A stretch of 64,000 bases of DNA. Origin: Eledone cirrhosa (taxonomy: Eukaryota). The stretch is from the NCBI GenBank assembly GCA_964016885.1, contig OZ024743.1, positions 171,554,001 through 171,618,000 of the forward strand, given 5' to 3'. Below the pieces are notes generated by a model. That model did no database searches, was not told the DNA's origin, and worked only from the letters and a program-made list of their open reading frames with translations. Each line of letters starts with the position of its first letter. Positions within the stretch are counted from its first letter, which is position 1. This document shows, one piece after another, positions 1,637-63,113 of this stretch. Both the position numbers and the translations under genes were made by a program.

Positions 1637-2566
1637 TACAATATAAACAGTTTTATAGATAAATAGATTTGACATACCGTACAACATCGACTTGTATTTG
1701 AAAAGTTGAATTGGCAGTGAAAAAATTGTACACAATATATTAATATTAATATATTGAAATCTGCTCTCTATTTCTGCTTGATAGATAATCTTGTAGAGTA
1801 AAGACAAGAATAGTAGTAATATAGACTCTATATATATATGTGTGTATATATATACACATATATGTATACTTAAATTTTTATAGCACAATGAGAATGTTTT
1901 CCGTGAACTTAGGGTTTGCAGAGTTGATCATGTAAATTCACATAGATGTTTGTACTTATCACATAAACATATGAATTTTTTTTTTTAAACTAAACATAAG
2001 ATCATCACTTTTCACACATTATGGATACATGTCTCATTCAGGAATACTGATATTTACAATATAGTGGCTGGTTTTTATACATACTAATACCTCTACATTA
2101 AAACATAGGGTTTTTATGCCTCGCCTATGTCTGGTTATTTTTAATTTTTCTCTCTATATAACAGCTGGTTTCTCTCCTAACCACATATATCTCCCTTACA
2201 TTAATACTAGAGCTAAATAAATAAATAAATAAATAAATGTATCATTGATACGTTTACTCAACGGATGTCCCACTACCTAGTTTTCTATATATATATCTAT
2301 CTCTATTTCCTCTCTCTCTATATATATATATATCTCTCTGTTTCTTTACATGAAGTTCTTCTCTTTATCTATCTTTCCATCTCTCTATTTTGTTCCATGC
2401 ATTTCTTCTTTTTCTTCTTTTTCTTCGTTTTCTGTCTTTCTTTCCTTTTTTCTCTCTTTCTTTCTCTCTGTGTACAATTTTTTCACTGCCAATTCAACTT
2501 TTCAAATACAAGTCGATGTTGTACGGTATGTCAAATCTATTTATCTATAAAACTGTTTATATTGTA

Positions 2567-2628
2567 TTTTGTCTGAGGAAGGCATAGCATATTGTTAATA
2601 TGATATCCCTGAAATATATATAATGAAA
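2567..2628 (+). ncRNA. minimal type I hammerhead ribozyme (PLE-type)
   Basis: TTTTGT-CTGAGGA-A-stem II-GAAA-TATATA-TA-ATGAAA. Core intact, palindromic stem III, stem I with GU pairs. Confidence 0.7.
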
Positions 2629-2794
2629 TAGATATGGTTTTATAAATATAGTTTCCATTTATTTAATATCGTATATATTTATATATATATACACACATAC
2701 ATATATACATATACATACACACACATATATATAAAAAACATACACACACATATACACACATATACATATTCACATTCATACTCATTGATACGCA

Positions 2795-3230
2795 TGCTCA
2801 ACGGAGGACCTGCACACAGAAAAACCTCAAATTGTAATTGCCACCTACCGGATAAGTGCCCACTACGGAATAGATGCATGGATTCGAGTATGGTGTACCT
2901 GTGTACTGTAAATTCAGGCAACTCTACTTGGCACTACATAGGTTCCACGGCTGGGGCGGTCAAGAAAATGTGGTGCGTCCACAGACACTCCATGAAGAAC
3001 CGTAGACTGGAGAACTCTACGACGCTCGCCAATAAAATCTGGCAACTTAAAATCAAAAACCAAGAATATAAGATTAGCTGGTCAAAATTAACGGTAGCTA
3101 GGGCCTACAGCAACGGAATGTCCCACTGCGGACTTTGGAATTTAGAACTACTCCATATTTTAAGGTACGATGGGATGCTGCTTAACAGCAAAATAGAAAA
3201 ATTAATTTTCTGTAGGCATAAAATAGCTAC
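2795..3230 (+). mobile_element. Penelope-like element (Naiad-like) GIY-YIG endonuclease fragment, 5'-truncated
   Basis: CNCHLPDKCPLRNRC, MVYLCTV...HYIGST, TTLANKIW and CRHK motifs in ORF 2785-3255. Embedded in microsatellite. Confidence 0.85.
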
Positions 3231-4299: not shown

Positions 4300-6557
4300 T
4301 TTGTTTTGTTTTGTTTTGTTTTGTTGTCGTTGTTCTTTTATCTGTCCAATATTTCGGGACCTAAAAGTCCCTTCTTCAGGGTTTAAGGAATCTTCAGTGG
4401 ATAATGTTCCAATTTTTTCTCTTTGGGATAAAATTTTTATTTAGATAAAAAAAAATATTTTAGTCGTTTTCAAGCGCTTTTCGATGGTTGCTTCGCTTTC
4501 CACGTGAATGACGTCAATTGCCAATATAGTATTTCGCGAAATCAATTTTCTTTTTTATATGAGATGTTTAGTTTGTATGCTTGTGGGTCTATCTTTTTAT
4601 GTTAAGTACTGTGTGCTGAGTTCTAATCCATTTTATTTATTTGTGGGTTGAGTCTACGTATGAGCAAGGCTTCCTTAATTCTTAAGTTGCCCACATTTCT
4701 ATCACTGGCTTTAATGGTAATGGTAATATGTTGGTTGGTGTTTCTACATTTGTCGATGTCTTTTTTTAATGAGGATTTGCCTGTGTTGAGGTGTTCTTTA
4801 ATGCGAGTGTGGAGTGCTCCAGACGTGCTACCAATGTAGAACTCCTTATATTTGTTGCATTCAATCCGGTATAACACATGTGTCCGCAGTATCGCGGATA
4901 GGCTAGTTAGTCAGCGAGATTTGATTGTTGTTGTCTCGGGATTGCTTTTGAGACAGGTATCCACGCAGTGAAGGGCCGGAGTGTGCTAACTGTATGTCCA
5001 GTCCTTCTTTGCGGATAGCTCTGCGGATAGCTGTGGTTATGCTTTCGCTGAAATGTGGTAATTTCCTGAAGCAGGTGTTAGTCGATTCATTGCGGGTGTT
5101 GGGTATCCATTCGTATTCAGTACATCTATGAAGTGTGCAGTATCGGTGATCTGGTTCTCTGTCTTGTTACATTTATTCCGGATACGCTTAAGTTCATTTC
5201 TTGTGTATCCGGTTTTAGCACCAAGGGGAAGGGATGATCTATAATGCACAAATAGGTCTCTGTTGGCAGCTTTCTTATAGAGCTTGGTGTATATAGTACC
5301 TTCATCTGTTACTCTAAGTTGGAAGTCCAGCAGAGACAAGGAAACATTTTTTTATCGGGGTGCTCTGTGTTTGAAAATGCCGTAGATATTATGTCGGTCT
5401 CTTCACGGGATGATGTGAAGATGAGTATATCATCTATGTATCGGGTGAAGAAAACACAGAAGCGGCAGGTGTTTAGCGCTCGATGTTCCAGTTGGTATAT
5501 ATAGGTGATGGCTAGAAGGCCTGAAAGACTGGACCCTATGGGTAGGCCTGTGGTTTGGTTGTATGTGTGGTGGTAGAAAATGAAATAAACATATTCTACG
5601 ATGACGGATAGAAGCTGATGTATGTCTTGTGGAGTGAGGTCAGAGCAATATATATTGTATGAAATGATGCTGTCAGTCACTAGGTTGACCGCTGGATGAG
5701 CGGGTACTGTCGTGTAGAGGGAAACAACGTCGAAGCTAAAGGCATATTTGTCAAGTTTAAGTTGGTTAGGTTGTAGTTGTATGACTTCGTCGGAGCTGCT
5801 GACATGTCCAGGAAAAGTAGCAAGCATAGGCTCTGAGAGGAACCAAGAGATTTTATAGAGGGGTCCTTCTATACTCGAGACAATTTGACTAATATGTAGA
5901 TTAACACTGTTTTGTGGGTTTAAATGAGGTGGTAGAACGTTGGAAGTCTGCTGTTTCTAGTGGTGAGGTTGTTTTTATATTTGTTGGGGAGTTGTCTACG
6001 TCTGCAGATATACGTCCAGGTTGTGTTGATGTGATCTTCAATCTGGGATGCAGCTATGTCTGTCACTTCTGTATATAGTTCACCGTTATTAAGGTGCTCA
6101 TATGCCCAACTGTTGTACGTGTCTCTCGAGATAACGCAGAATTCTTTCCCTTTGTTGGAAGGGAGGTATATGAGGTCCTTCTCTCGCATGGTGTTTAAAA
6201 TGGGGTGTTCTTTCCTGGAATGTTTAGGGAGTACCTTCTTATGTTTCAGTAATATGCTAAAAATAGACTCATTAAGTCTGGAGAGTTTGAGGTCAAGCTC
6301 TCGTTTGATAGGCGGTGAAGAATAAGACTGACACAGCTTCGGTCGTTGGCTCACTAACTCAATATTTAAAATCTGTATTATTAAGACACAAACCCAAGAA
6401 AAATTAGAATGCACACGTATACATTAATTAGGGAGAAGAACGATTTCGTGTGGGTGGAAAATTAGATTTTCCGGCCACGGACCAATCTATCTTCTCCATG
6501 GGACTTGTTCTCTTTGATCTTCTTATTGCTCTGTGAAGTTCCTCTCTGGCGAAGGGT

Positions 6558-12316: not shown

Positions 12317-12355
<39 letters not shown>

Positions 12356-14905
12356 TCTTTGAGTCTCAGTCATCCAGTTAACTAACATCTCATTGATGAT
12401 AGTTAACTGGAAAGTTTGTTGAGATGATTATCAAGCCACTACCTGCAGCCTCAGATATTCAGGACGTATCGGAGGGTTCTTGCTGTTCTCAGCAAGCATG
12501 CCTTTTGAAGCGTTCCAAAAAGCGTGAAGGGGCCAATTTTCTTTAACCATCTCTGGAAACTTTTTGAGATAGTCCCTAGTGCGCCTATGACAATCGGGAT
12601 CACTTTGACCTCATGGCAGTTCCAAATCCTTTTTACCTCCCACTTTAAGTCCTGGTATCGGTTAATTTTCTCCCTCTCCTTCTCTTGCACTCTCGTGTCG
12701 AATGGGCAGGCCACATCCACAATCAGGCACGATCTTTTTTCTTTGTCCAAAACCACCAGGTCAGGTCTATTGTGTTCCAGTTTCTTGTCCGTCTGTATCC
12801 TAAAATCCCACAGCACCTTCACCTGATCGTTTTCTATCACCGCCTCTGGCTTATGCTCATACCACTTCTCAGAATGTGGTAAATTGTTTACTTTGCATAG
12901 GTGCCAGTGGATCACCCTGCCCATCACATCATGTCTCCAGCCCTTATTGTGAGTCTGGGCTAGGTGTTTACACTCGGATACAATGTGAGCCACAGTCTCC
13001 TCTCTCTCTCTCCACAGATCCTGCACAGTGGGCTAGCCTCCTCCTTGTAAATATGGTGTTTCAACCACTTCGATTTTAGGGCCTGCTCCTGCGCAGCCAT
13101 TAACATTCCTTCTGTAGCCTTTTTAAGGTCTCCTCTTTTCAACCAGTTCCATGTCTTTGGATCTCTAAATTCAGTTTTCTCAAAGAAGGTACTATGAAGG
13201 GATTTTTCCTGAAGGCTGCTCTTTCTCCACGTTGTTATTTCCTCCTTGGACATCCCCTGGCCTATTGTCCCATCCTTTAGTACAGTTCTGAGCATTGGCT
13301 CCTTACTATCAGTCACGTATTTGTGTAGGTTGTTTTTCTCCATCTGAACACAGTCCTCTATGCTGATAAGACCTCTTCCACCCTCAGATCTCCTTAAGTA
13401 GAGTCTATCGACATCACTCCTCTTGTGGAACATATTGTAGATAGTCAATAGCTTCCTAGTCTTCCTATCCATTTCTTTTTGTTCAGCAACATTCCATCTG
13501 AGAATTCCCGCACTGTACCTAATAATAGACACAGCTCGGGAATTTACTGCACTTATAGCATTCCTACTGTTCAGATGTAACTTTAATACGCTCCTTACTC
13601 TCCGAAGGTACTCAGTTCTTATCAATTCCTTCATTTTTTTGTTCTTGATGTCATCAGCCTCCAGAACGCCCAAATACTTGTATCTTTCCTCAGATACAAT
13701 TTCTTTTATCATCTCACCTGTTGGTATCTGGATTCCGTTACTTCTGCTCCACTTACCCCTCCACATCACAATGACTCCACACTTACTAATACCAAATTGC
13801 ATACATATATCATTGCTGAAAATACGGACAGTGTCAACAAGCACATCCAACTCCTTCTCACTCTTCCCGAAGAGCTTAAGATCGTCCATGAAGAGGAGGT
13901 GATTGATGGTAAGCCCTCCCTTTCCCAACCTGTATCCTGCTCTCACTTTTCGCAGTACACTGGTCAGGGGCATCAGGGCAAGGACAAACAACAGAGGGGA
14001 CAGACTATCTCCCTGGAAAATACCTCTCTTGATCTTCACGCTTCCCAAGGATTCTCCAGTTGATGTTAACTCTGTTTCCCAGGACTTCATACTTTTGCCC
14101 AACAACTGCCTGATGTTATCTGCCACCTTGAAGATCTCAGGCTTTTGGTGATCCAAGAATGAGGCACCATGTCAAATGCCTTTTTGTAGTCTATCCATCC
14201 CATAGCAAGACCAGTGTGTCTCCTCTTGAAATTCCTCATTACCATCTTATCAATAAGTAACTGGTCCTTTGTACCACGTGACTTCTTTCGGCATCCTTTC
14301 TGTTCGTCCGGTAACAAGTTGTTTGTGTGGAGGTGATGGTAGATTTCCTCAGACATAATGCTTGTCAACAGTTTCCACATTACGGACAGACATGTGATAG
14401 GTCTATAGTTGGTAACATCATTACCCTTGATTCGGTCTTTCATTATCAGAACTGTGGTACCTTTTGTCAACCACTCTGGTACCTCACCTGACATCAAGCA
14501 GTCATTGAACATGGTTATCAGTTTCGAGTGGAGGGATGTTATGTTTTTAATCCAATACCCCTGCACACCATCTGGGCCAGGTGATTTCCAGTTGGTTAGT
14601 ATTTTGGCCGCCCCTTAAGAGTTTCAACTGTGATACTCAAATCAGTTTGTTGGCGTGCCTGTTCACTGATCTCCTTCTGTACTGTCTCAATCCACACTGC
14701 CTGGTCATTATGTTTAACATCCTGCTCCCATATTCCTCTCCAGAATGTTTTAGTTTGTTCCGCCTCAGGGATCAAGACGTTGCCTCTTTCTTTCCCTTCA
14801 AGCTGTCCAAACAGCATCTTCTGGTTGTTGTCGAACATGCGGTTCTGTCTATACTGGCTGACTCTGTTCTCGCATCGCCTGATTTTTGCACTTTTTGCTA
14901 CAATG
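12356..14905 (-). mobile_element. R4/Dong-clade LINE (RT, CCHC, restriction-like endonuclease), 5'-truncated, in (TAA)n
   Basis: PGPDG, YRPITCL, EQKGCR..GTKDQLLID, WIDYKKAFDMVPH, RGIFQGDSLSP, HLLFMDDLK, CRIC..H..C, RHD and RPDL..DVACP..EK motifs. Flanked by (ATT)n on the + strand at both ends. Confidence 0.93.
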
Positions 14906-14906
14906 C

Positions 14907-14938
<32 letters not shown>

Positions 14939-15151
14939 TATTGGCGACCTACGTAGTAAATCGTATCATCGTGAGCTCCGCAAAGGTTTGTTATTTCCGT
15001 TTGTTAAAAAATGCCATTTATGGAAAATTTTATTTTTAACTGTTTATAAGCGCACATACATTGTTTTCCGAAAAGGACACCCAAAAAGATTGGGGCCTTG
15101 TGCCCAAAATTTAAACTTTTATGATTATCAAAAAATTTCTTTGAAAAAAAA

Positions 15152-17069
15152 ATGGCTAATTCACCTATGCACCAAGCAGCTGGGAGCCTTCCTCACAAAC
15201 TAACACCTCACACCGACTCCACCATAGTAAACATTACTACGTTTGCCAACACAAATAATTTAAGCAGTAGCAATATTTTAAATTTGTCTCAGGCACACAT
15301 TCATTTCCCGACATTACCAATGACTGCAGGTGTTAAAGCCGCCACCAACACCACCACCGCCGCGACAACCACCACCGCGACAACAGAAACAAAAGGAAAA
15401 AATAAATCAACTCGTGATGTCGAAATGTTTTCAACCAAAATGGACTCTTCCACACCGAACACCACTGACGTCACCACCACCACAACTGAAACTAAAATTA
15501 ATAATAACAAAAAATAACGATAACAACAACAGCAACAATGACATAAAAAAACCACCCTGAGTTTTGCCAGAGTAGCAAAACAGTGCGAAACATTTACAGT
15601 AACTCAGGAGGAATTAGAAAATGCCAAAAAAATGGTAAAGAAGATGCGCAAATGGTCAGCCTCCCCCCACACACACCTAATAAAATGGAGCATCGGCGCC
15701 AATGCACCGTGTCGTATCGAACAATTAATGTAAAATCGCGCCGAGTGGAACGGGCATCCGAGTCCCAAATCAAAAAAGCTTTGGGACATGTGTGGGCAAG
15801 AAAAACCCGCATCAGACGTTGGCAGGAGTATGGAACCGTGGACGTGTTCTTTGAAACACCAGAGGAGGCTAGAGAACACTCCATGGCCCCATTAAGAAGT
15901 GATGACTTCACACTCGTCCCAAGCTATTGTGGCCAGAGACTCGTAAAGATCAGGGTGACCCACGTTCCACCGGCCATCGAAATTTCCTGGCTAATAGCGG
16001 CCGTCCTCGCCGGCATCGAAGCCAACACAAAGATAATAGCAATAGCAAAAGAAAAGCAGGAGAACTGGTCCGGATCTGGGATGGAGCTCCTGATCCAAGG
16101 GGACCAAAAAAGCATTGAGGAGATCCCAGAGGTAATAGACCTCACTGACGGCAGCCACCTTACCGTAATTGTCGAGGGCAGAAGGCTAAAAGGTTGAGGC
16201 CACCTCTCCTACCCACCCCAGTGACTCAACCATCAACACCACCAGTAGCAGAGATGGCAGCAACAAATGTAGCAGCAACAACAGAAGCAACTATAACAGC
16301 AACAACCCCAGCAACAGTAGCAAAACCAACATCACCACAACCAGCAAAACCAACACCACCACCACCCAACGCTTCAGAACTAGCACCAGCGCCTACACCA
16401 TCCACCACGCCACAACCAAAACTAACGCCTGTGGAGGATTTTCCACTCCCCGGCCTATCACAACTGAAGACAGATTGTGACGACGAAGAGTGGGAAACGG
16501 TATCTGGAAAAAAGAAAAAAAGAAACCAAAAAAGAAAAAATTCTCTTCCTTCCCCCTCCAAAAACAAAATACAGAGGGAAACAACTAAATTAACAAACAA
16601 AAAAGTTAGGACAGATATGCCACCAGCATCACCAACCCCATCACCCCATACACCAACACCATCACCATCATTAACTCCAACACCACCATCACCTACACCA
16701 CAAAAGTCACCAAAATGCGAAACAGAAACAAACCCACAACAAACGCAAACAAAACAAAACAACCAAAACGATACACACTACACAGCATTAAATTTGAACA
16801 ACAAGCAATTATTACACTACATCCAACACAACACCAGCATCACAGAAAAAGACTACACAACAACCCAAAAATTCACACCACTTCCACACATTCAAATCAC
16901 TCGCATCACACAGAAAACGTACATGACACTAAAACAAAAATTCCCCAAAGACATCGGAGACTTCCGACAAGCACTCTCCAGGAGGATTTATAAGGACATC
17001 GTTCCTGAGGAGGCCACAAGCAGTGAAAAGGATGGAAAAACCGTCCTTCCTCTACGAGAAGTAAGGTAA
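15152..17069 (+). pseudogene. Tx1-A ORF1, frameshifted
   Basis: Homologous to ORF1 of copies B and D (QCTV.Y.T, QI.KALG.VW, LVPSYCGQ). T/P-rich linkers. Confidence 0.75.
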
Positions 17070-17103
17070 GTGGTCTTTCCCATCTTTTCCACTCCATTTC
17101 AAC

Positions 17104-20100
17104 ATGACCTCACTCTGAATAGGCAGCATAAATGCGCGTGGCTTGGGGTCGTCATGGAAGCAGGGCCGCCTGCTCAACGACCTCAGGTCACTAAACATAG
17201 ATGTAGTGGCCATCAGCGAGACCAGAATCTCCGAAGCACGGGCCTTCGCACCGATCTTCGGCGGCTACGATGTGTACGCATCTCCCAGCCGTCCTGGATC
17301 GGAGGGAGGAGTTTCTGTGCTTTTTCGGAGAGGTTTGGATCTCGCCATACGGGCCATCTTCCTGGACCCAGAGGGTAAGCTAGTGGTGCTGGACGTGACC
17401 AGCGGAGACGGGCAAGCTTTCAGGCTAGTGGCCGTCTATGCCCCGACAGGAGCAGGGTGGCCTGATTTCTTCCGGCGTCTGGAGACCTTTCTTGGAACGT
17501 CCCGCTCTTTAGTGTTAGCGGGCGACTGGAACGGGATCTTAGATGCACGCTGGGACTGTGTGGGATTAGCGGATAGGGGTGGAGGGTGCAAGAGCCTCAC
17601 CAACCTGCTCAGGCGTTTTGAACTGTCTGACAGGTACCGATTGGATTTCCCGAATGTGCCAATGTGGACTTGGTCAAATCGCATAGGGTCATCCAGATCA
17701 TATCGAGATAGAGTACTTTGTAGGGAAATAGATAGGTCTAGCATAGGCTGTCCACAATTCAAGATAGTCAGCTACACGGACGATAAATTCGTGATCTGTG
17801 TGCTTGACTTAGATAGGCTTCATAGACGAGGACCTTAACAGCGCGCAAGGCCTACAGAGGCCGGATTAGCGAACTGGTTAAGCGTGCGTTGACGGGGGCC
17901 ATCGTCAACAACAAGTGGTGGTTTGCTCTGAAAAGAGCGATTAAAATAGAGTCCATTAGGTTTAGTAAGGCTTCAGCAATAGAGAAAAATAGAACAGAGG
18001 GAGAATTAGTTAGAAAATTAGACGAGGCGCTTAGCAAAGGCATCGCGACCGACGTACTTGCGGCGAAATTGGCCCTTGACCAATTCTTCAATGCAAAGCA
18101 CGAAGGCTGCGTTTTCAGAGCTAGTGTGCGTGCTCTCAGACACGAGGGGACGAAAGCCGTTCAATGGGCCCGAGTGGCGGAGGCGCGTCGTGGCAGCCAA
18201 GCCACGATCCGGTCTTTGGTGGACCACGACGGACGCATGCTACTCGATCCCGGGCAAATGTGTGAAGCTTTTCAGCGACACTTCGCTCAACTGTTCGGGG
18301 GAAGTGGCGGGCCGGATCGAGGGATGGACTTTAGTGTCTACCTCGGCGGACTGCCGCGGCTTTCGGCCACTGATGCGGAGTGTTGCGAAAAGCCGATAAC
18401 AACCGCTGAAGTACGGGAGGCAATGAGTGGCTGCACAAGGGGTAAATCGCCTGGTTTGGATGGTCTGCCCTATGAACTTTACTTACAGATGCCAGACTTG
18501 TTCGGATGCCTCTTGGCGGACGTCTACTGCAACTGGCAACAGAACGGGAGAATTCTCAGCTCTGTGAGCCGAGGAGCGGTGGCGCTGCTGAGAAAGGATC
18601 CGAACAAGGGGGATAACATAGATAATTTTAGGCCCATAACCCTGCTAAACACAGAGTTCAAGATTTTGGCCAAGGTGCTAGCAAAGAGGTTGGCGCTTGT
18701 CGTTGGTGGACTGGTGGGAGAGGCACAGACATGCGCCATTCCCGATAGATCCATCCACGACAACCTCCACCTTATGCGATACATCGTAGAGAGGGTTGCT
18801 AGGGAACCTGGCACGGGTGGGTCTTTGATCAATTTAGATCAGTCGAAAGCCTTCGATAGGGTAGACCATCGTTACCTAGCGTCAGTCCTGAGGGCGGCTG
18901 GCTTTGGGCCCGTCTTCAGAGGCTGGATCGCTGCCATCCACAGCGACATCTACTCTGTAGTGAGAGTGAACGGTCACCTTTCAGAACCGTTCAACATCAT
19001 GCGCTCGGTCCGCCAAGGATGTCGCCTCACGTCCCTATTGTACGTATTGACTCTCGAGCCATTACTGCACAAACTGGAGACGTTGAGGGGCATCCCGCGC
19101 GAACTAGGATGCGGAAGATCCGTGTCAGCATATGCGGACGATGTCACCGTAGTGGTGTCGAACGCCAAACACATCGAGGCGATCGGCACTACACAAAGAG
19201 AATACGAAGCGGTGACAGGAGCAATGATCAACCAGTAAAAGTCAGTGGGCCTGCAGCTCGGCACCTGGAGAGGCAGGTCCATGCCATCGAACAGCGTCGT
19301 CGGGCGCTGGACGGACGGACCGGTTAAATTGCTAGGGGTCTGGTTCGGTCCAGACCTCCAGACGGACAAAAACTGGGACGAGGTGACGAGCAGCGTTGCT
19401 TCTCTCACCCAGAAATGGGCCGAGAGGAAGCTATCCCTGAAACGTCGAGCGGAGCTGGCTAACGCGTACATCGCGTCCGTCATCTACTACCGCCTGACCG
19501 TCGTACCTTGTCCTAAGCCCCGCCTGACTGCGCTGGAGCGTTTGCTCTTTCGCTTCTTGTGGAAGGGAAGCGCTCCGATAGTCAGGCGGTCCATCTGCTG
19601 TCAACACCCGCTACGTGGAGGGCTGGGCATGCCGTGGCTGATGATACGCAGACACGCGCTCAGGCTACGACATCTCCACCTCTTCCTCGACGGTGATCAG
19701 GTGTGGTCGCCGTTTGCTAGACACGTTTTTCCCCAGCTCGTCTCCTTGACGGAGCTGCAGTCCTGGGTCAAGTGACGACCGAGAGTGAGCGCTTGGAGAC
19801 TGGAATGTCTTCAGGCGCTCACAGCCCTCGACCAATCGGGCAATGTGATCGGTGGAAACTCCACCTTGGCGTTCTATAGGGGATTAGTGGAGGGGAAGAG
19901 CGACGACGTACTTGGAGAAACTCTAGGCGTCGACGAAAATCAACTAGCCTATCTCTTCGGAAGAACTTTCGGGCCGGGGCCTATGTACAAGTCCCAGAAA
20001 TCCCTGGCCTGGCAGTGATACCGGGGTGCTTTGCCAGTTCGGGATAAACTCTACAGGCATGGAGGTGCCGTCAGCCGGGCATGTCCGAGAGGCGCACAGG

Positions 20101-20500
20101 GCGACGAAACCGTCCTGCACGCACTCGTCCAGTGTCCGAGCATTGATGACTTGTGGGTATATGTCGAACACCTGCTGTCACGTGTAGGACGGATCCAGCT
20201 ATCAGCTGAGTCCATCGTGAGGATTGCCCCGCCCTCTTCCTTTAGCCGGGAAGGGCAGGCAGTTTTTATCTGTCTGGTGGCCATGGCGAAAGAGATAGTA
20301 TGGTGGACACGTTTGAAAGGGCTGAAGACGAGCACTTACCTCTTCGGTGATGCCCTGATTAACTTTTTCAAATTTCATTTGAAAAGGAAAATCAGGGTAG
20401 ACAGGGAAGTGCTCTCTTCCCAGCATTTTGTTGAAAGATGGGTGAGAGAAGCAAGTATGGCCCGAATGAATGGGCCTTCTCTGAGTATGTGTCTGCAAAT
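17104..20500 (+). pseudogene. Tx1-A ORF2 (APE endonuclease, RT, zinc finger) with several stops
   Basis: SINARGL, ISETR, VYAP, LAGDWN, KSPGLDGLP, FRPITLLN, DQSKAFDRVDH, VRQGC, AYADDV, GGLG and ETVLHALVQC motifs. Confidence 0.9.
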
Positions 20501-20739
20501 TAAAGGTGGAAAACTGGGAGAGGGCACTTGCCCTGGTGGTCAGGGTCACTGCTGTCTTTTAATGGGCTTTCTCCACAAATGTCCCTCGGATGTCTCCCCC
20601 CTATTGGGGAATTTTTCTTTGTTATTTTATTACATCCTCTGTTTTTTACACGCAGAAATGCCCATTTGTACCGTCCTGTATTGTCCTGTACTGTCCTTAA
20701 TGTCTACTTTATGTAAACCCTTGTGGTTAATAAAGAAAA

Positions 20740-20773
<34 letters not shown>

Positions 20774-20791
20774 GTTCTTTGAGTCTCAGTC

Positions 20792-23700
20792 AGATGTCGC
20801 TGTGCATGGCAGCGATCCACCCTCTGAAGATGGGCCCAAAGCCAGCCGCCCTCATGACTGCCGCTAGGTAACGATGGTCGACCCTATCGAAAGCTTTTGA
20901 CTGATCTAAATTGATCAAGGACCCACCCGTGCCAGGTTCCCTAGCTACCCTCTCTACAATGTATCGCATGAGGTGGAGATTGTCGTGGATGGTTCTGTCG
21001 GGAATGGCGCATGTCTGCGCCTCTCCCACCAGCCCACCAACGATAAGCGCCAACCTCTTTGCTAGCACCTTGGCTAAAATCCGCAAATTATCTATGTTAT
21101 CCTCCTTGTTCGGATCCTTTCTCAGCAGTGCCACCGCTCCTTGGCTCACAGAACTGGGAATTCTCCCGTTCTGTTGCCAGTTGCAGTAGACGTCCGCCAA
21201 GAGGCCTCCGAACAAGTCTGGCATCTGTTAGTAAATTTCATAGGGCAGACCATCCAAACCAGGCGATTTACCCCTTGTGCAGCCAGTCATTGCCTCCCGT
21301 ACTTCAGCGGCTGTTATCGGCTTTTCGCAACACTTCGCTTCAGTGGCCGAGAGCCGCGGCAGTCCGTCGAGGTAGACACTAAAGTCCATCCCTCGACCCG
21401 ACCCACCGCTGCCCCCGAACAGCTGAGCGAAGTGTCGCTGAAAAGCTTCACACATTTGCCCGGGATCGAGAAGCATGCGCCCGTCGTGGTCCACCAAAGA
21501 CCGGATCGTGGATTTGTTGCGACGACGCGCCTCCGCCACACGGGCCCATTGAACGGCTTTCGTCGCCTCGTGTCTGAGAGCACGCACCCTTGCTCTGACA
21601 ACGCAGCCTTCGTGCTTTGCATTGAAGAATTGGTCAAGGGCCAATTTCGCCGCAAGCACGTCGGTCGCAATGCCTTTTCTAAGCGCCTCGTCTAATTTTC
21701 TAACTAGTTCTCCCTCTGCTCTATTTTTCTCTATTGCTAAAGCCTTACTAAACCTAATGGATTCTATTCTAATCGCTCTTTTCAGAGCAAACCACCACTT
21801 GTTGTTGACGATGGCCCCGTCAACGCCCGCTTAACCAGTTCGCTAATCCGGTCTCTGTAGGCCTTGCGCGCTGGTAAGGACGCGTTTAGATTACAGTTGC
21901 CGGGTCCTCGTCTATGAAGCCTATCTAAGTCAAGCACACAGATCACGAATTTGTGGTCCGTGTAGCTGACTATCTTGAATTGTGGACAGCCTATGCTAGA
22001 CCTATCTATTTCCCTACAAAGTACTCTATCTAGATATGATCTGGATGACCCTATGCGATTTGACCAAGTCCACATTGGCACATTCGGGAAATCCAATCGG
22101 TACCTGTCAGACAGTTCAAAACGCCTGAGCAGGTTGGTGAGGCTCTTGCACCCTCCACCCCTATCCGCTAATCCCACACAGTCCCAGCGTGCATCTAAGA
22201 TCCCGTTCCAGTCGCCCGCTAACACTAAAGAGCGGGACGTTCCAAGAAAGGTCTCCAGACGCCGGAAGAAATCAGGCCACCCTGCTCCTGTCGGGGCATA
22301 GACGGCCACTAGCCTGAAAGCTTGCCCGTCTCCGCTGGTCACGTTCAGCACCACTAGCTTACCCTCTGGGTCCAGGAAGATGGCCCGTATGGCGAGATCC
22401 AAACCTCTCCGAAAAAGCACAGCAACTCCTCCCCCCGATCCAGGACGGCTGGGAGATGCATACACATCGTAGCCGCCCAAGATCGGTGCTAAGGCCCGTG
22501 CTTCGGAGATTCTGGTCTCGCTGATGGCCACTACATCTATGTTTAGTGACCCGAGGTCGTTGAGCAGGTGACCCTGCATCCTGACGACCCCAAGCCACGC
22601 GCATTTATGCTGCCTATTCTGAGTGAGGTCATGTTTAAAATAGAGTGGAAAAGATGGGAAAGACCACTTACCGTACTTTTCGTAGAGGAGGGATGGTTTT
22701 TACATCCCTTTTCACTTGATTGTCTGGTGAAGGGACCGTTGAATCGTCCCTTCTGCTGGTCGTCGGCTCTTCTATGAGTATGTCCGAATATACTCTTCGA
22801 TTGTGTAGTTCCCCCTAGGTCCCTGAAATCACCAACTGCGTTTGGGAATTTCGTTTTAATGTTTGTGTATTGTTTCTGTGCTATTTTTAGCAGTCTTATG
22901 TTAGTTGGCGTTTAGATTGGTGCTGGTATTATGTAGTCGTGTTGTGAAATGTCTGTGTGTTCAATTATGTAAGTCTTTAGTTTCTTGTTGTGTGTATTTA
23001 TTGCCGTGCATTTGTTTTTCTGGGGGTGGGGTGTGGTTCTGCTATTTTCTTGTCGTTGTTGCTGGGTGTGTGTGTTTTGTTGTTGTGTTTGCGATGTTGG
23101 TGCTTGTGATGGTGGTGTTGAAGGTGTTGTTGGCGGTGGGGTTTTCGCCGGTGGTGATGGTGGTGCTAGTGTGGGTGGTGATGGTGTTGGTGGTGTTGCT
23201 GCTGTGAGTCTCTTTGCAGTAGACTTTACCCTTTTCTCATTTCTTTCCTCCCTTTTCAAAGGCGACGATGCGCTGCTTCTGCGTTTGTGCCTTCTTACGA
23301 CCTTTTGCCATCCCTCTCCCACCTCACACTCCATGTCTGATTCTGTGAGGTCGGGGCGGGGTACCAGCTCCACTCTTTCACTTGTTGTTGTTGGTGATGT
23401 TTGCACTGGAGTCTCTGTTGCAGCTGCATTTGTATTGCTGTTGTTGTTGTTAATATTTCCACTGCTGCTGCTGTTCTTGATTTCCGTGGCGTGGGTATGG
23501 GTGCCACGGACCTATCGTTCCTGGTTGCCGCTTGTCCTGTTGCTAGTAGCCGTGGAGCCGGTTTCGGAAGGAGAGGGGGGTTTTCTCCTTTCTCAGGATC
23601 TTCTCGTTGCAGAAGGCCCTGAGGTGAGTCTTCGATCCACAGCGAAAGCATTTAGGGCGTTTGCTCTCAACACTTATGGGCAGTTGAGTGCCGTTATCGA

Positions 23701-24945
23701 AGTCTATCACATCCGGGATAGCTTCGATGCACTCCTGGTTGGTTTGGATTAACATCTCAATGGAGGTGCCGACCCAATCTTCTCTTACTTTTTTCTGTAC
23801 TTGCAGTACAGTTGTTTTGTCCTCGATTCCGACGAGGACTGACGCGGCCAGCCAAGAAGGGGCTATCCCGGGGGGTGGGGGTGGGGGACGTGGGTCAGTT
23901 TGACCTTCACAATTTTTTGCCCGCAGTAGGAGGGCACCAACACCATTTCCTCGCTCCTTAGGGTCACTACGGATTGAGCCTTTGCCTCCTGGGGTGTGGC
24001 AAAAAGTACGTCTACGGTGGCATATTTCTTGCCTCGGGTGATATGCTTTTTCCGCTGCCACACAGACCCCAAGGCTTTTTGTATTTGAGCCTCTGTGGCT
24101 CTTTCAACCATACGGGATTTTGTACTTACTGTACTGTACGTGACCGTACAGTGCTGTTGGGTTTCGAAAAAATTTTCCGCTGCCTTGCAGATTGCTCGGT
24201 GTCCGGTCTTTGTCACCATCTTCTTCGCTTCCTCTAATTCCTCATTTGTTATGAGGATTGTTTCCAGGTTCTTCGCGATACCTGCAAACGAGATTGGTTT
24301 TTCTTTGCTGCTGTTGTTGTTGTCGTCAGAGCTGCTGTTACTTTTGTTGTTGCTGCAGGTACTACGACTACTGCCTCCGCCGCTGTTGCTGTGGTTGTTG
24401 TTGGTGTTGCTGCTGCTAATGCTGTTGTTGTTTATGCTGCTGGTGATGTTGTTGCGGCTGCTACTGTTATTTTCATTGTCACTGTTGCTGTTGTTATTAC
24501 GGCTGCTACTGCTATTATTCCTGACGTCAGACGAATGAAATGGGTTTTCGTATTTCCCGCACACCTGTTTCGTCGTTGTCGTCGTCGTCGTGGAGAAATC
24601 TTGCACGCTTTGCACGAGACTTTTCTTTTCTGTCGTCGCTTGCGAAAGAGAAGGGAGGGAGAGAGACACATTTAAAGAAGGGAGGGTGAGAGACAATCTT
24701 CTCTCTGCTGTAGTGATGATTGAGGAAGAAGAAAACGGAATGAGTGGGAGTGACCTATGAAAATTCTTTTTCGTAGCCATGTTGTTTTTTTTTTGTTTAA
24801 AATAAATATTGGGCACAAAACCCCAATAAGCAGTTATTTAACCCCGAATGGCCAAATAACGGGCAGAAAGACCCCTCTCACGAGGAGGAGGGTGTTTTTG
24901 TCTACAAGTTGGTAAAAGTTTTAAACAATTTACAATTGTTATAGC
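20792..24945 (-). mobile_element. Tx1-clade LINE copy B, 3'-truncated inside RT
   Basis: ORF1 from ATG 24780 to TAA 22668 with zinc knuckle CFRCGSKTHLRAFC. ORF2 from ATG 22632 is nearly identical to copy A as far as WIAAMHSDI. Confidence 0.92.
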
Positions 24946-25070: not shown

Positions 25071-25087
25071 TCCCTAATAATAATAAT

Positions 25088-25955
25088 GATTTTTTTGTTA
25101 GTCACACAGGGCTCACATTAAGGAGACATTTAAGGTGTTACAGGACGATACAGTGTGGGTTTTTTGTGTAAAATAGAATTTATAAAAGAGATTAAGAAAA
25201 TAAACATTAAAAAAGCAATGAAACATAACAAATTCCCGAAAGGTGAGGATACTCCAAGGGTTACTCACGGAGAAAGCCCACAAAAACCACGTCCCCCAGA
25301 CCTTAGGGCAAACGCCCTCTCCCAGTTTTCCTACTTCAATACTACAGGAACATTCTCAAGGTAGTTCCTGTCACACTGGCCATTCTTGCCTATCTCACCC
25401 ATCTTTCGACAAACTGGCTCGGAAGCAGCCTATCCCTCTCCCCCCTTTATTTCCTTTTCAGGCGAAACCTGAATAGTTAATGAGAGGGTCGACGTTTTCA
25501 ACCCTTTCAGACGCATCCACCATACGACCTCTTTCACCATGACCACCGGGCAGATAAAAACTGCCTGCCTTTCCTGGTTAAAGGAGGGCGGCGGGGCAAT
25601 CTTCAAGATGGGCTCATCTGATAGCCGGTTCTGTCCTACACGCGACAGCAGATGTTCGACATAAACCCACAAATCAGCGATACTCGGACATTGGACGAAT
25701 GCATGCAGGACGGTCTCGTCGCCCTGCACGCATTTTGAAAAGGCCCGGCTGATGGCACTTCTTTGCCTTTAAAGTTTATCTCGACCTGTCAACGCTCCAC
25801 GGTATCACTGCCAAGCCAGGGATTTCTGGAAGTTATCCATTGGTTCTGGACTGAAAGTTCTCCGGAAGATTATAGCTAGTTGGCTTTCGTTGACACCCAG
25901 AGTTTCCCGAAGGACGTTGTTGCTCTTGCTCTCCACATTGATGCTCACCCGGGTC
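25088..25955 (-). mobile_element. Tx1-clade LINE copy C, 3' fragment ending in (ATT)n
   Basis: FQKSLAWQ and QGDETVLHAFVQCPSIADLWVYVEH are homologous to the copy A C-terminus. Tail reads (TAA)n on the + strand at 25076-25087. Confidence 0.85.
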
Positions 25956-32960: not shown

Positions 32961-35900
32961 GGCTGTCAGTCATTAAAGAAGTGTTTTGGGAGTTCCGCAA
33001 ACGTAGGATATTTTCTGTTTATTTTTATTTATAATAATTGTTGTATTCTTAGAGAAGGGCCGTAAGACTTCTATCTTTCCCTCTGAAGGGGTGACTGTAA
33101 TATTTGGGCCTTTTGGCCCAAATATTTGAACTTTTTTGTATTTAAAAAAAAAAAAAATTCACGAAAAAAAAAAAAAAATGGCTTGAGACCCCCCCCCCCC
33201 CCAAATTTAAGTCTGCTCTCGTGTGACAGCGACCTAAATGTTCAGAGGAGGCAGAGGAGGAAAGCGGCAAACATTCATTTATACTACAAATACATTTAGT
33301 TATACCACCACAAATAGCATAAACAGTTGCAGCAGCAACACCAATAGTGAGAACAATAAACTTTAAAAAAACGATAATACCAACCACAGCAGTAACAGCG
33401 ACAACCAAAAGACAGACAACAGATATGATGACAACAAAAACAACAACGAAATTAACACCACTAACCAGAATATAAACAGCGACAGCACCGACAGCAACAA
33501 TACCAACTGCACCGAGAACAACAACAACGGTGGCACTAAAGATATAACCAATTACAACAGTGATAACAGCAACAGCACCAACAAGAACAACAACAACAGC
33601 GACCACAACTAAAAGAACACTTTCGCTGTGGCAGCAGCCAAGAAAAGGCCATGCTTCAACATGGACTTGACAGACAAGGAGACAAAGTTGGCCCAGGCAT
33701 GGAAGCTCATCAAACAGGAGCAAACCTGGGCTAATTTAACTGTCCCGGCAGAGGCCATAGAAGCGGTGGAGAGGAGAACTCTAGCATTCAGATGCATCTC
33801 AGCTGAGACGAAAAGAGCCACAAACTCTCCCCAAGCAGACGTCGAAGCTGCGTCGAGGTGCATCAGAGGAGATACAGAGTACGTAGCGAGGGGTCAACAA
33901 TAGGCCACCATCTCGGTGCTGTTTAAGTCGGAGGCCCTCGCTTTGAAGCACTCGACGACCCCTTGCAAAATCAGCACGGTTATTATGTACCCCTCCCAAA
34001 TGGGAAAAACAATGATTAGAGTCCGCATTCCCAGGATTCCACCTGGACTAGATATGTGGTGGCTCTTGGGATGCGTGATTGTGGAGGGGTCAGATGCCGT
34101 CCAAATAGAGGTAACCAGGGCAGGAAGAGAGGACTCGTCCGGGGTTGATCTGGAAATACTCTCCAGATCAAACCTGAAGAAATAAAGAAAATCCCGGAGC
34201 AGATCCGCCTCCAAAAGGGGACGGCTCTACAAAAGGCCGCACTGTTTCGGTTGCGGGGGAAAAAACACGCTTACGAGCCTTCTACCCTCACCTGTTGAAA
34301 AATACAAGCGGTCAAAAGTGTCCGCTGCTGCCGACGCCGGGGCCTCAACAACTGCAACATCGTGAAACAACAACACCAACAACAAAATCTAAAGCAGCAA
34401 CACCAGCAGCAACATCAGCAGAACCAACAACAATTGCAAAGACCACCAAGATCACACAGGGGCCACTCCAAAGAAGGTCTCCCACCCCCTCCTCTCGAAC
34501 ACACACACACATTGAAACACACACACCCATACACACACTGCCACTTATATCTGACACAAACACAGAAACCTCTTCATCACTAAGCGAAGACGAGGAGGAA
34601 CACCAAAAGCCAAAAAAAAGAAAAAAAGAAAACACAAGAAGAAATCTCACACACCAACACAGACAGCAAACAAAAAAGACACATTCGCACCAAACACAGA
34701 CACACATACTACAACACCCACCCCTGCAACAACACAAACACCATCTCCACCGACAACACTATCACTAACACAAACAACTAAAAGAAAACACACACAGCAA
34801 CAACTTACAACCACAACACCTAACTTCGTGTTAGTGAGGAAATCGAACACAAAACTGTTGAACCTCATAACACGAAGTAAGGAAATAGAGAAAGAGGGGG
34901 AGGCGTTTAACACCTGCACCTTCAAGGTGCTACAAACACTTTTGCTGGTGCGAATAGCACTAAGCAATTACAAAACAATTAGGGAGAGCTTCCTTAATGA
35001 CGTGGGAACACCCAGTGTAAAAGCCTCAAGTAGGTTTTTAAATGGGTTCCCAAAAGAAACCCCACCAACTGTGGAGGTCGAAATACCCGACCTTCACAAG
35101 AGCCCGGGAGGTAAGTAAACCTTTCCTCTCTCTTTTAGCCTGCCAACATGGCCATATTAAGAGAAGGGTGTTTAAATGTTCGAGGCCTCGGATCGTCCTG
35201 GAAGCAGGGTCACCTGCTCAACGACCTCAGGTCCATAAAAATGGATGTAATTGCCGTCAGCGAGACCAGGATTTCCGACTCGCGCGCACTAGCCTCAATT
35301 TTCGACTACTATTAGATCTTCGCATCTGTTAGTCGACCGGGAATGAGAGGTGGGATGGCAGTATGTTTAGGAAAGGCCTGGATCTCGAGGTAAGGTCGAT
35401 CTTCCGGGACCCGGACGGTAAGTTGGTGGTCCTGGACGTGAACAATAGCGAAGGTGTTGCCTTTCGACTGGTGGCAGGGGCAGGTCGGCCGGATTTCTTT
35501 AGACGCCTGGAAGCCTTTCTGGGTACGTCTCGCCCTTTACTGTTAGCGGGGGACTGGAACGGCATCTTAGACGCACGCTAGGATTGTGTGGGAGTATCCG
35601 ATAGGAGCGGGTGTGCAAAAGCCTCAAGTTCCTGATCAGCCAGTTCCAACAGTCTGACAGGTATCGACTAGATTTTGCTAATGCAACAGTGTGGATCTCG
35701 ACAAATCGTTTAGGGACATCTAGATCGTACTTAGATAGGTTTCTAATAAGATTAGTGGATAAGGATAGTATAGGGTGTCCACAATTACAATCGGTCGCCT
35801 ATTCAGATCACAAGTTTGTGATCTGTATGGTCGACCTAAATAAGACGCGTAGGTTAGGACCTGGTTACTGGAAGCTGAACATGTCATTTCCGGCACGTAG

Positions 35901-35989: not shown

Positions 35990-36197
35990 AAGGCGGTGGA
36001 TTGGCAGTATCGGTAGAGGGTCGGATGCCATGCTTTGACGTATAGAGTTACGGCCCTTGCCATTCTGAGTCCAAATCCCGCCTAGGTTAACTTTGCCTTT
36101 CATCCTTACGGGGTCGATAAAATAAAGTACCAGTAATGCACTGGGTAATTGCTGGCCTTGTGCCAAAAGTAGAAACAATTATTATTATTATTATTAT
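35990..36197 (+). mobile_element. family 1 SINE, full length, with (ATT)n tail
   Basis: GGCGGTGGATTGGCAGTATCGGTAG...GGCCTTGTGCCAAAAGTAGAAACA(ATT)n. Confidence 0.88.
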
Positions 36198-40741: not shown

Positions 40742-43700
40742 ATCAACTATACTATATATTTTCAACAGTAATACTGTACTATATATTATCAAGAGTAATA
40801 CTATACTATCTATTTTCAACAGTAATACTGTGCTGTACTATATATTATCAAGAGTAATACTATACTATCTATTTTCAACGGTAATACTGTACTATATATT
40901 TTCAACAGTAATAGTATACCATGTAATTTCAACAGTAATACTATATTATACTATATATTTTCAACAGTAATACTATACTATATATTTTCAACGGTAATAC
41001 TGTACTATATATTTTCAACAGTAATACTATACCATATAATTTCAACAGTAATACTATATTATACTATATATTTTCAACAGTAATACTATACTATATATTT
41101 TCAACGGTAATACTGTACTATATATTTTCAACAGTAATACTATACCATACATTTTCAACAGTAATACTATACAATATATTTTCAACAGTAATACTATACT
41201 GTACTATTGGTTTTCAACAGTAATACCGTAATATATATTTTCAACAGTAATATCGTACTATATAATTCCAACAGTAGTACTGTATTGTACTATATATGTT
41301 CAACGTTAATACTGTACTATATATTTTCAACGTTAATACTGTACTATATATTTTCAACAGTAATAAAGTACGATATGATTTCAACAGTCATACTATGCTA
41401 TACTATATATTTTCAACAGTAATACTGTACTACATATTTTCAACCGTAATACTATAATATATATTTTCAACAGTAAGACTATATTATATATTTTCAACAG
41501 TAATACTGTACTGTACTATGTATTTTCAACATTAATACTAAATATTTTCAACAGCAATACCGTACTATATGTTTTCAACAGTAATTCTGTACTATATATT
41601 TTCAACAGGAATAATATACTTTATATTTCCAACATTAATACTATACTACATATTTTCAACACTAATACTGTACTATACTATATATTTTCAACAGTAATAC
41701 TATATATACTATATATTTTCAAAAGTTTAATTATTCTATGCATATTCAACAGTAATTGTTTTCTATATATTTTCAACAGTAATACTATACTATATATTTT
41801 CAGAAGTAATACTGTACTGTACTATATATTTTCAACGTCAATACAGTACTACATAATTTCAGAAGTAATACTGTACTGTACTATATATTTTCAACACTAA
41901 TATTGTAATATACTGTACTATATATTTTCAATCGCAATACTATACTATATATTTTCAAATGTAATACTATACTATTTATTTTCAACAGTAATACTATACT
42001 ATATATTTTGAACAATAATACTATACTATGTTACAAATACTATACTATATATTTTCAGCAGTAATATTATACTATGCATATTCAACAGTAATAATGTACT
42101 ATCTATTTTCAACTGTAATACTAAGCTTTACTATATATTTTCAACAGTAATACTCTCCCATATATTTTTAACAGTAATGCTATACTATACTATACATTTT
42201 CAACAGTAATACAATACTATATATTTTCAACAGTAATACCGTACTATATATTTTCAACAATAATACTGTACTGTACTATATATTTTCAACAGTAAAACTA
42301 TACTATATATTTTGAACAATAATACAATACTATGTTATAAACAGTTATATTATACTATATATTATCAACAGTAATACTGTACTGTACTATATAATTTCAA
42401 CAGTAATTATATATTTTAACTAGTAATAATATACTATATAATTTCAACAGTAATACTATACTATGTATTCAACAGCCCTACTATATTATATTATATATTT
42501 GCAACAGTAGTACTTCACTATAATTTTCAACAGTAATACTATACTATGTACTATAATATATATTTTCAACATTAACACTACACTATACTATATATTTTCA
42601 AGCGTAATATAATACTATATATTTTCAACAGTAATATTGTACTCTACTATATATTTTCAACAGTAATAATGTACTATATATTTTCAACAGTAAAACTATA
42701 CTATAATAAACAGACGGCTTATCGTCTGCTTATCATCTGCTTATCTGTACTATATATTTTCAACAGTAATAATCTACTATATATTTTCAACAGTAATACA
42801 AGACCATATATTTTCAATAGTAATACGATAGTATACTATATATTTCCAACATTAATACTATACTATATATTTTCAACAATAATAGTATACTATATAATTT
42901 CAACAGTAATACTGTACTATATATTTTCTACAATAAGACTCTACTATTTTTTTTCAACAGTAATACTATATATTTTCATAAGTAATAGCATACTATATAT
43001 TTTCAACAGTAATACTGTACAATATATTTTCAACAGTAATATTATACTATACATTTTCAACAGTAATACTGTACTATACTATATATTTTCAACAGTAATA
43101 CTGTACTATATATTTTCAACAATAATTCTATACCAAATATTTTCAACAGTAATACTATACTATACTATATATTTTCAACAGTAATACCGTACTATATATT
43201 TTCAACAGTAAAACTATACTATATATTTTGAACAATCATACTATACTATCTTACAAATACTATACTATATATTTTCAACATAATACTATACATTTTCAAC
43301 AGTAATGCTATACTATACTATATATTTTCAACAGTAATACTATGCTATATATTTTCAACAGTAATACTGTAGTGTACTATATATTTTCAATAGGAATACT
43401 GTACTATATATTTTCAACAGTAATACTATACTAAATATTTTCAACAGTAATACTATACTATACTATATATTTTCAACACTAATACTGTACAGTACTATAT
43501 ATTCTCAACAATATTACTATACTCTACTATATATTTTCAGCAGTAATATTATACTATGTATATTCAACAGTAATAATGTACTATATATTTTAAACTGTAA
43601 TACTAAGCTTTACTATATATTTTAAACAGTAATACTATGCCATATATTTTCAACAGTAATGCTATACTATACTATACATTTTCAACAGTAATACAATACT

Positions 43701-50207: not shown

Positions 50208-50598
50208 CTAGCAGGAAAACCACCCTCCGGGTGGTTTTCTGCTAGCATGTGTAGTATGTATATTGATATTATATGCAAGTATATATGCATGTAGATATGA
50301 TACATCAAATAAAATCGTAATTGACAGTATACACAGAAATTGAACGAAAACTGTGTTACACTCTCTTATGTAATCAGTCACGTAATCCATGATACATTAA
50401 AAAAAGACGATATTATATATCTGCTAGCATATGTAGTGTGTATATCGATATTATACGCAAGTATATATGCATATAGATATGATCAAATAAAATCGTAATT
50501 GACAATATACACAGGAATTGAACGAAGACTGTAACACTGCCTTATGTAATTAGTAACGTAATCCATGATACATTAAAAAAAGACGATATTATATATAA
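50208..50598 (-). mobile_element. Helitron-like element with two tandem ~180-bp units
   Basis: Units ~50239-50420 and ~50421-50597. Terminal hairpin 50208-50245 ends CTAG|T on the minus strand. Same family as 4095-4209. Confidence 0.6.
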
Positions 50599-50785
50599 AC
50601 TGCATTAGGAGAAAATTAATGACAGAAATATATGAATATTTATTTAAACAATCACTACCTACAAGCGTTGACATTTGAAAATTTTAAAGAAGTGAATCTT
50701 TAAATAAGTAATAACATATATTTAATGAACAGCTACAAAATTTAGTGTATAAATTATGTAATATTCATTCATTATTTATTCAAAG

Positions 50786-50885
50786 TAAGTTAACTTTGCC
50801 GTTCATCCTTACGTGGTCGATAAAATAAAGTACCAGTAATGTACTGGATAATTGCTGGCCTTGTGCCAATAGTAGAAACAATTAT
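50786..50885 (+). mobile_element. family 1 SINE, 5'-truncated, with apparent TSD
   Basis: Core and tail present. ATTATTTATTCAAAGTAA occurs on both sides (50771-50788 and 50881-50898). Confidence 0.85.
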
Positions 50886-51392
50886 TTATTCAAAGTAATC
50901 CAACTTATTTTACTAAGGGGATAAACAATTATAAACCGTACGCAGTCCCGCGCTTCTTACTTTATTATAGTTTAGATGTTTGTGTATATTTTAATTATTT
51001 AAAAATTATTCTTAAGTGAACATGATTTTAAAAAAAAATTGTTTAGGTGAACGTGACACAACGGGTCACGGGTGATCTAGTGTGTATTTAACGTTTTGAA
51101 AACACGGAAAGACAACAGGCAGACAATGATATAAAGATATGCGCATGCACACATACATACATACATACATACATACATACATACATACATACATACATAC
51201 ATACATACATGCGCACATACATACATACATTCATACATACATACATCCACACATACATACATACGCACATACATATATACATACATCATACATTATGTAT
51301 GTATACATATTTACGAACACACACACATACATACATACATACATACATACATACATACATACATACATACATACATACATACATACATACAT

Positions 51393-51998: not shown

Positions 51999-52033
51999 AC
52001 ATACATACATACATACATACATACATACATACA

Positions 52034-52064
<31 letters not shown>

Positions 52065-52667: not shown

Positions 52668-52708
52668 ACACATACATACATACATACATACATACATACA
52701 TACATACA

Positions 52709-52739
<31 letters not shown>

Positions 52740-60163: not shown

Positions 60164-63113
<2,950 letters not shown>

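Follow-up and report, generated by a model that had tools for sequence, protein, structure and literature searches.

The stretch of DNA analyzed here (the window, 64,000 nt) contains a LINE of the Tx1 type and a SINE with a tRNA-type head. Both end in a small hairpin with a CTTGT loop, followed at a short distance by ATT repeats. This raises the question of whether the SINE is moved by Tx1 elements. An earlier note on this sequence had proposed that it is, through structural mimicry of the hairpin of one Tx1 family, type A, with an (ATT)n tail. Our results lead us to a modified form of this proposal. The 28 nt at the end of the SINE match the 3' ends of ATT-targeting Tx1 elements in loop, stem position, GAAA and register. 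We consider it fairly probable that the SINE relies for its copying, in trans, on a Tx1 ORF2 protein (ORF2p), which would bind the CUUGU hairpin.

Tx1 elements and their 3' ends

The features of the window are collected in Table 1. The type A copy is assigned to Tx1 by its organization (ORF1, and an ORF2 with APE endonuclease, reverse transcriptase (RT) and C-terminal zinc finger; Pfam matches PF03372, PF00078 and PF13966), by its preference for a target sequence and by an insertion with no poly(A). Its RT groups with homologues which include one named TX1 149 kDa protein (34%), and stands apart from CR1 and RTE with a support of 96/99, in a tree without an L1-proper reference. The best PDB matches of the endonuclease are L1 and L1 chimeras. 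Both boundaries of the element were set by comparison with relatives, 30 for the start and 30 for the end. An (ATT)n array is found upstream of all 30 full-length starts fetched. The (TAA)n-tailed LINE in which the window copy is inserted is one which we take, from its C-terminal motifs, to be R4/Dong-like.

Table 1. Position of the features found in the window.
Feature	Position	Strand	Remarks
LINE taken to be R4/Dong-like, 5'-truncated	12317..14907	-	(TAA)n tail, orientation opposite to Tx1-A; RT matches, sequence
(ATT)n array 5' of Tx1-A	14908..14942	+	
Tx1-type LINE, type A, full-length, frameshifted	14943..20740	+	5'UTR, ORF1, ORF2 (APE endonuclease, RT, zf-RVT)
Tx1-A 5'UTR hairpin	15093..15105	+	GGGC-CTTGT-GCCC, about 45 nt upstream of the ORF1 ATG
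Tx1-A 3' hairpin	20716..20728	+	AACC-CTTGT-GGTT, loop 20720-20724
Tx1-A true 3' end	20729..20740	+	AATAAA 20729-20734, GAAA 20735-20738, then AC; duplications start directly after
Target array (ATT)11 3' of Tx1-A	20741..20773	+	opposite strand is the (TAA)n tail of the presumed R4/Dong-like element
Leftover (20 nt) of the Dong-like 3' end	20774..20793	-	its tail is the entry point of Tx1-A
Tx1 type C copy, 3' part	25076..25936	-	hairpin 25113-25100, short (ATT)4
Full-length SINE, about 186 nt	35992..36177	+	A-box-like 36002-36013, B-box-like 36069-36078, central block, tail
SINE tail	36154..36177	+	GGC-CTTGT-GCC 36154-36164 (loop 36157-36161), spacer, GAAACA 36172-36177; ATT from 36178
5'-truncated SINE	50771..50898	+	target-site duplication of 15-18 nt (50771 and 50881); lies within a different repeat
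Inverted repeat	1297-1734 with 2469-2906		438 nt at 100%
RT fragment	5309-5956	-	unrelated to Tx1 or Dong; possibly Penelope-like
27-nt satellite	40746-44876		about 148 copies
Direct duplication, 741 nt	51325-52063 with 51999-52734		
Inverted repeat	55198-55418 with 55943-56163		221 nt at 98.6%
(TA)n tract	60168-63087		2.9 kb

The 3' hairpin of the type A copy and the ATT repeats which follow it lie exactly where the earlier note had placed them. Among the best 30 relatives fetched (665 candidates, 40 scored), 28 have this hairpin intact. Contigs from four public runs gave 1,792, 3, 2 and 0 pieces which align to the end of Tx1-A. No substitution at a frequency of at least 5% is found among them inside positions 20716-20740, a weak comparison because only pieces at least 80% alike count. 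A metagenome scan for 3' ends across species found nothing.

Six types of Tx1 3' end were found among the loci examined in the genome (3.0 Gb, 1,796 contigs): A, C, H, D1, D2 and one inserted in (ATCT)n. The hairpin is present in all of them as part of a common layout, which consists of a stem of 3-4 bp, the CTTGT loop, AATAAA, GAAA, two bases and the target. The distance from loop to target is 16-17 nt; the earlier note had given it as 16 nt in both Tx1-A and the SINE, which is correct. The stems are AACC/GGTT in A, AGCC/GGCT in C, AGCC/GGCC in H, GGCC/GGCT in D1 and GGCC/GGCC in D2. The modal form of the hairpin is found in 49 of 56 A ends, 11 of 19 C, 9 of 16 H, 10 of 11 D1 and 8 of 10 D2, numbers which are approximate, as some ends are mis-binned (for example, three A-type ends within C). 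The (ATCT)n type has the same 3' hairpin and AATAAAGAAA (loci L078, L086, L075, L294 and L320), so the hairpin is a property of the element and not of the target. Type C, with a 6 nt loop (CTGTGT), is the sole departure from CTTGT. The window copy of this type, AGCC-CTGTGT-GACT (minus strand, from 25113), had been read correctly but regarded as a weaker hairpin. This does not hold for the family, since GACT is a private change of this copy and most relatives have GGCT.

Every Tx1 family seen also has a hairpin 30-50 nt upstream of the ORF1 ATG, in some cases long and perfect, with a CTTGT, TTTGT, TTTAA or TTTT loop. In the window, such hairpins are found at 24824-24811 (minus strand) and at about 33120-33140, besides the one in Table 1; other examples are in loci L012, L019 and L023. 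In Tx1-A the loops of the 5'UTR and 3' hairpins are identical, and the GGC-CTTGT-GCC core of the former is intact in 23 of 30 relatives. Moreover, 5' ends are exchanged as modules: one 5' region, whose ORF1 is about 53% identical to that of type A, is joined to an ORF2 of either type A or type H (loci L151, L153 and L160 versus L152; window 20792-24840).

The SINE and its insertion sites

There are 13 SINE hits in the window. The B-box GTTCRAATCC is found in six of the window copies, together with an A-box-like word with one mismatch. ARAGORN detected 0 tRNA genes, and an Rfam search gave no tRNA match at E up to 10 and nothing significant. The central block (window 36093-36140) has a match to the 5' part of U2 snRNA (13.1 bits, E = 1.4) which is not significant. 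As in OR1 and OR2 of octopus, the head is of the tRNA type, and the central block presumably resembles the octopus CORE domain. On account of this resemblance and of the LINE families present, we take the genome to be octopus-like. OK is said to be a further tRNA-derived SINE of octopus, from the work of Ohshima and Okada in 1994. The usual marks of retroposition are present: a fixed 3' end, 5' truncation, target-site duplications and empty sites.

The tail of the full-length copy reads as had been claimed, with the loop and the first ATT at the positions given in Table 1. The SINE had also been described as abundant, and in fact exact tails of the short type occur 134,745 times in the genome. 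A sample of 100 evenly spaced 10-kb stretches contains 122 copies with a 3' end, 97 from a short subfamily and 25 from a longer, older one. Among the short copies, 65 of 93 have TGGC-CTTGT-GCCW with a 16-nt spacing; among the long ones, 6 of 25 do. Some variants were detected. At locus L290, the head of the SINE (about the first 40 nt) is present in seven tandem copies ahead of one body. A second SINE family has the same central block and a different, longer tail (loci L114, L099, L095 and L085). A search for a LINE whose stem is like that of the SINE and whose upstream letters are like those of Tx1 gave 361 matches.

The ATT repeats which follow the SINE and Tx1 had been taken for a tail. They are the duplicated target. 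Both elements are thus tailless, since the duplications begin right past the GAAA and two bases. An exact repeat of 9-21 nt is found in 44 of the 118 SINE copies with usable flanks (4 of 122 were dropped), against a mean of 3.8% and a maximum of 7.7% in 200 shuffles of the flanks. Of these duplications, 26 begin exactly two bases past the GAAA, and 30 of 34 sites read at this offset start with ATTAT. For Tx1, 30 of 76 boundaries have a repeat of at least 8 nt, although many of the 76 are alignment ends instead of true junctions and the flank-shuffle control refers to the SINE set only. Most of these repeats are simple-repeat arrays and thus uninformative. The five informative duplications (9, 14, 14, 21 and 30 or more nt), which are not pure arrays, begin 1-2 bases past the GAAA, with no added units.

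The SINE at 50786 is a good example. Its duplication had been reported to begin with ATTATT, and this is the case: 15 letters are identical in both copies, extending to 18. The SINE lies in a repeat of about 400 nt (window 50485-50977), in which the same site is filled by independently inserted SINEs in five of nine copies seen, with different truncation points (filled loci L287, L290, L304 and L175). The empty copies, at four distinct loci (L233, L239, L281 and L162), carry the target only once. The duplication is therefore real and the site is an insertion hotspot; roughly 2% of ATTAT sites overall have a SINE, far below five of nine.

The earlier note had expected SINE and Tx1 to share their insertion signature. 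Motif with its ATT start, register and duplications agree; array preference agrees for type C but not for types A and H. At least seven ATT units are found after about 60% of A/H ends (6,782 vs 11,255) and after 3.4% of SINE ends (4,576 vs 134,745), the latter equal to the background of 3.2% (167/5,290), figures from patterns which are not strictly nested. The median ATT run is 7 in A, 4.5 in D1, 4 in H, 3 in D2, 2 in C, 2 in the short SINE and 1 in the long one. From this gradation, the SINE resembles type C, not A, in array length.

Likeness of the tails and candidate partners

Two SINE tails were compared with each LINE end by end-anchored alignment, which gives pairs of scores: 17/23 for A, 21/27 for C, 27/32 for H, 24/32 for D1, 27/32 for D2 and 27/33 for the ATCT type. 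Tx1-A, the family named as a match in the earlier note, is the worst of the six and prefers long arrays, unlike the SINE. On present evidence, it is not the specific partner. Type C fits the SINE in run length, but its loop has 6 nt. A different SINE of octopus may have a tail even nearer to the Tx1 ends. Ten LINE ends outside Tx1 (three CR1-like, two Dong-like, four RTE-like and one I/Nimb-like) reach at most 18/22, and no better match for the SINE is found among them; these scores exclude one zinc-finger RTE-type family, whose true 3' end was not located.

The observed scores between SINE and Tx1 are met by 6 and 0 of 10,000 shuffled tails. Among 5,263 genomic 28-mers which precede ATTAT, those reaching the score are SINE or Tx1 ends, with one exception, as judged by eye. 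The shared sequence is short and diverged, not near-identical as in classic pairs, but the likeness covers about 28 nt, which favours descent from a Tx1 tail over the structural mimicry originally proposed. Judging from the sequences, Tx1 elements as a group are the likely mobilisers of the SINE, by virtue of such descent rather than by pure mimicry. We should also note that the best local match to the SINE tail in the whole Tx1-A element is the 5'UTR hairpin (15094-15116, 33/30), which equals any 3' end; out of 100 shuffled elements, 1 and 3 do as well. SINE-tail-like matches can therefore arise elsewhere. This match may be partly due to chance, since other Tx1 families have other loops at that place.

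The stems had been described as different yet complementary, and the alignment of the six Tx1 and two SINE ends agrees with this: 90.6% of the 32 stem cells are paired, and three of the four stem pairs have changes on both sides. Covariation of the stem is 0.473, against 0.174 in shuffled alignments and at most 0.232 when the stem is slid, which is only suggestive, because the eight rows were hand-picked and the structure was taken from those same rows. The SINE stem may also be obtained from D2 by deletion of one C-G pair, an alignment which removes one of the changes. Folding predictions are less uniform. In 40-nt Tx1 contexts the closing pair of the hairpin has a probability of 0.79-0.96; in longer contexts it is 0.64-0.95 in 9 of 12 cases and 0.01-0.16 in the other three. 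For Tx1-A it is 0.88 in contexts of 40 and 80 nt, and 0.16 in 150 nt. The short SINE gives 0.00-0.04 in folds of 80-200 nt, while in the long SINE the value is 0.74-0.91 at 80 nt, dropping to 0.00-0.45 at 150-200 nt. Thus, the covariation expected from the earlier note is suggested by these eight rows, and the SINE hairpin is not favoured when the whole RNA is folded.

The ages of SINE and Tx1 overlap, but they single out no partner. Median divergence is 3.2% in the short SINE and 9.6% in the long one, and 4.2% in A, 3.4% in H, 0.6% in D1, 4.9% in D2 and 5.6% in C, the Tx1 sets being biased by their retrieval.

An unsampled or lost LINE with a closer 3' end, either from another L1/Tx1 lineage with a relaxed ATTAT specificity or from another clade, might be the true partner. 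The SINE is without the array preference which Tx1-A/H have, our family searches scored the best 150 of 13,078-44,774 candidates, and the RTE-type family mentioned above might also be considered here. Nevertheless, we regard such a LINE as unlikely. A protein search of loci totalling less than 2 Mb of the 3.0 Gb, a coverage in which a rarer LINE can be missed, found no L1/Tx1-like fragment outside the known families. Of the tail-variant loci inspected, 27 of 30 have the SINE central block upstream, three have other flanks, and none is recognisably a LINE. Furthermore, one would expect a LINE behind more than 10^5 recent copies to have left visible copies of itself. A search for the L2-type marker PF09004 had no match anywhere, controls included, and is hence uninformative.

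Tx1 might also mobilise the SINE without recognizing the hairpin, if AUUAU priming suffices (a relaxed mode), and the motif would then be a relic or the polyadenylation context of Tx1. The loop and the fixed spacing of 16-17 nt are kept while the stems change in pairs, and the SINE has retained hairpin and GAAA and lost AATAAA, so we find this reading improbable, even if the hairpin is weak and out-competed in folds of the whole SINE, AATAAA follows the hairpin in all Tx1 types, and SINEU, a crocodilian SINE, has been assigned to Tx1 from target preference, copy age and 5' heads, according to the available parts of PMC4494074.

Some LINE families of the genome were considered as partners and rejected. 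A very young CR1-like family has a 957-codon ORF, intact in many copies; its 3'UTR is duplicated and its (ATT)n tail is a real one (loci L244, L246, L247 and L251-L280); all 40 matches scored are identical over 118 nt. It is very improbable, and largely refuted, that the SINE is moved by this young family with its ATT units, or by Dong or RTE, and resembles Tx1 by chance: the CR1 hairpin has a different loop and scores 9/14, CR1 junctions have a repeat of at least 8 nt in 1 of 21 cases, compared with 44 of 118 for the SINE, which removes this most obvious rival, and the Dong-like, RTE-type and I/Nimb-like ends do not match the SINE tail, with Dong-like tails being TAA on the element strand and RTE ends carrying other repeats.

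A possible mechanism and its relation to known systems

In target-primed reverse transcription, a nick by the APE endonuclease frees a 3' end, which primes on the RNA. If the SINE is copied by Tx1, the endonuclease would nick the strand opposite ATTAT, and ORF2p would hold the RT on the hairpin, a ruler which would fix where the cDNA begins, at 16-17 nt from the loop. There, the freed DNA end would act as primer by pairing with AUUAU read through into the RNA, and a second nick 10-18 nt downstream would give rise to the duplication. The source of the SINE tail is probably an older 3' end of Tx1, of type H, D or C but not A; the tail would since have lost AATAAA, unneeded by a Pol III transcript, and either exchanged or dropped one stem pair. 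That SINE and Tx1-A/H differ in array preference might reflect the endonuclease of the partner family (type C has short runs like those of the SINE) or the length of the AUU read-through. Source copies which retarget paralogous sites by longer pairing would be consistent with the hotspot.

A more specific version is a serious candidate, yet still a tentative one. A tRNA-type SINE, among the most abundant repeats of the genome, would be driven by Tx1 through a stem-loop ruler, with ORF2p on the CUUGU hairpin and the RT starting exactly 16-17 nt downstream, neither a tail nor poly(A) being involved. The (ATT)n and (ATCT)n families would use one and the same hairpin, and the 5'UTR hairpin with the same loop would mark the other end of the RNA. 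If this is true, the Tx1 branch would gain its first stringent SINE partner with a shared tail, and the animal L1 clade a case of template choice based on structure.

[quoted passage not shown] The likely motor of a major cephalopod repeat would be named. A minimal element of 28 nt with natural stem variants provides test material, and a target preference which relaxes between LINE and passenger is relevant to site-specific retrotransposon tools. Our literature search found no paper on this Tx1-SINE pairing (supplements or entries in Repbase and Dfam may already name the partner), and the pairing is barely described so far.

In octopus, the tRNA-derived CORE-SINEs OR1 and OR2 are credited to Ohshima and Okada 1994 in the parts available of PMC4758252 and PMC4824008. 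Those two papers together with PMC13282606, PMC10294476 and PMC5786205, in the parts available, jointly describe recently active L1-Tx1, CR1, RTE and Dong-R4 families in O. vulgaris, and name no partner LINE for the octopus SINEs.

Several Tx1 elements insert in simple repeats. According to the parts of PMC4494074 available, Kibi targets (TC)n, Koshi (TTC)n, and crocodilian Tx1 families (TTCC)n/(TTTC)n. The elements described here are like these families in their L1/Tx1-type ORF2 and in their insertion in simple repeats with fixed orientation and phase; they differ in their targets, (ATT)n and (ATCT)n, and those parts of the paper give no SINE partner for any of these families. The same source argues that SINEU is likely moved by Tx1-Mar, from target, age and 5' heads. 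As in that case, the present SINE is tied to Tx1 machinery by a shared target and age. SINEU, however, has snRNA heads and a Mariner-element target, and no argument from a 3' hairpin is made for it in those parts (PMC4494074), whereas the present SINE has a Pol III tRNA-type head, a Tx1-like tail and over 10^5 copies.

The SINE and Tx1 probably form a partnership of the known stringent kind, in a branch of LINEs for which the literature searched has no tail sharing. The stringent pairs are UnaL2/UnaSINE in eel and LINE1-1_ZM with ZmSINE2/3 in maize (PMC3747384), and Table 1 of that paper includes no Tx1 partner and no mollusc. As in these pairs, LINE and tRNA-type SINE have in common a short 3' hairpin with a conserved loop, a variable but complementary stem and conserved flanking letters. 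On the other hand, the partner here is of the Tx1 type, LINE and SINE share no more than about 28 nt, and the elements have no terminal repeat or poly(A) of their own.
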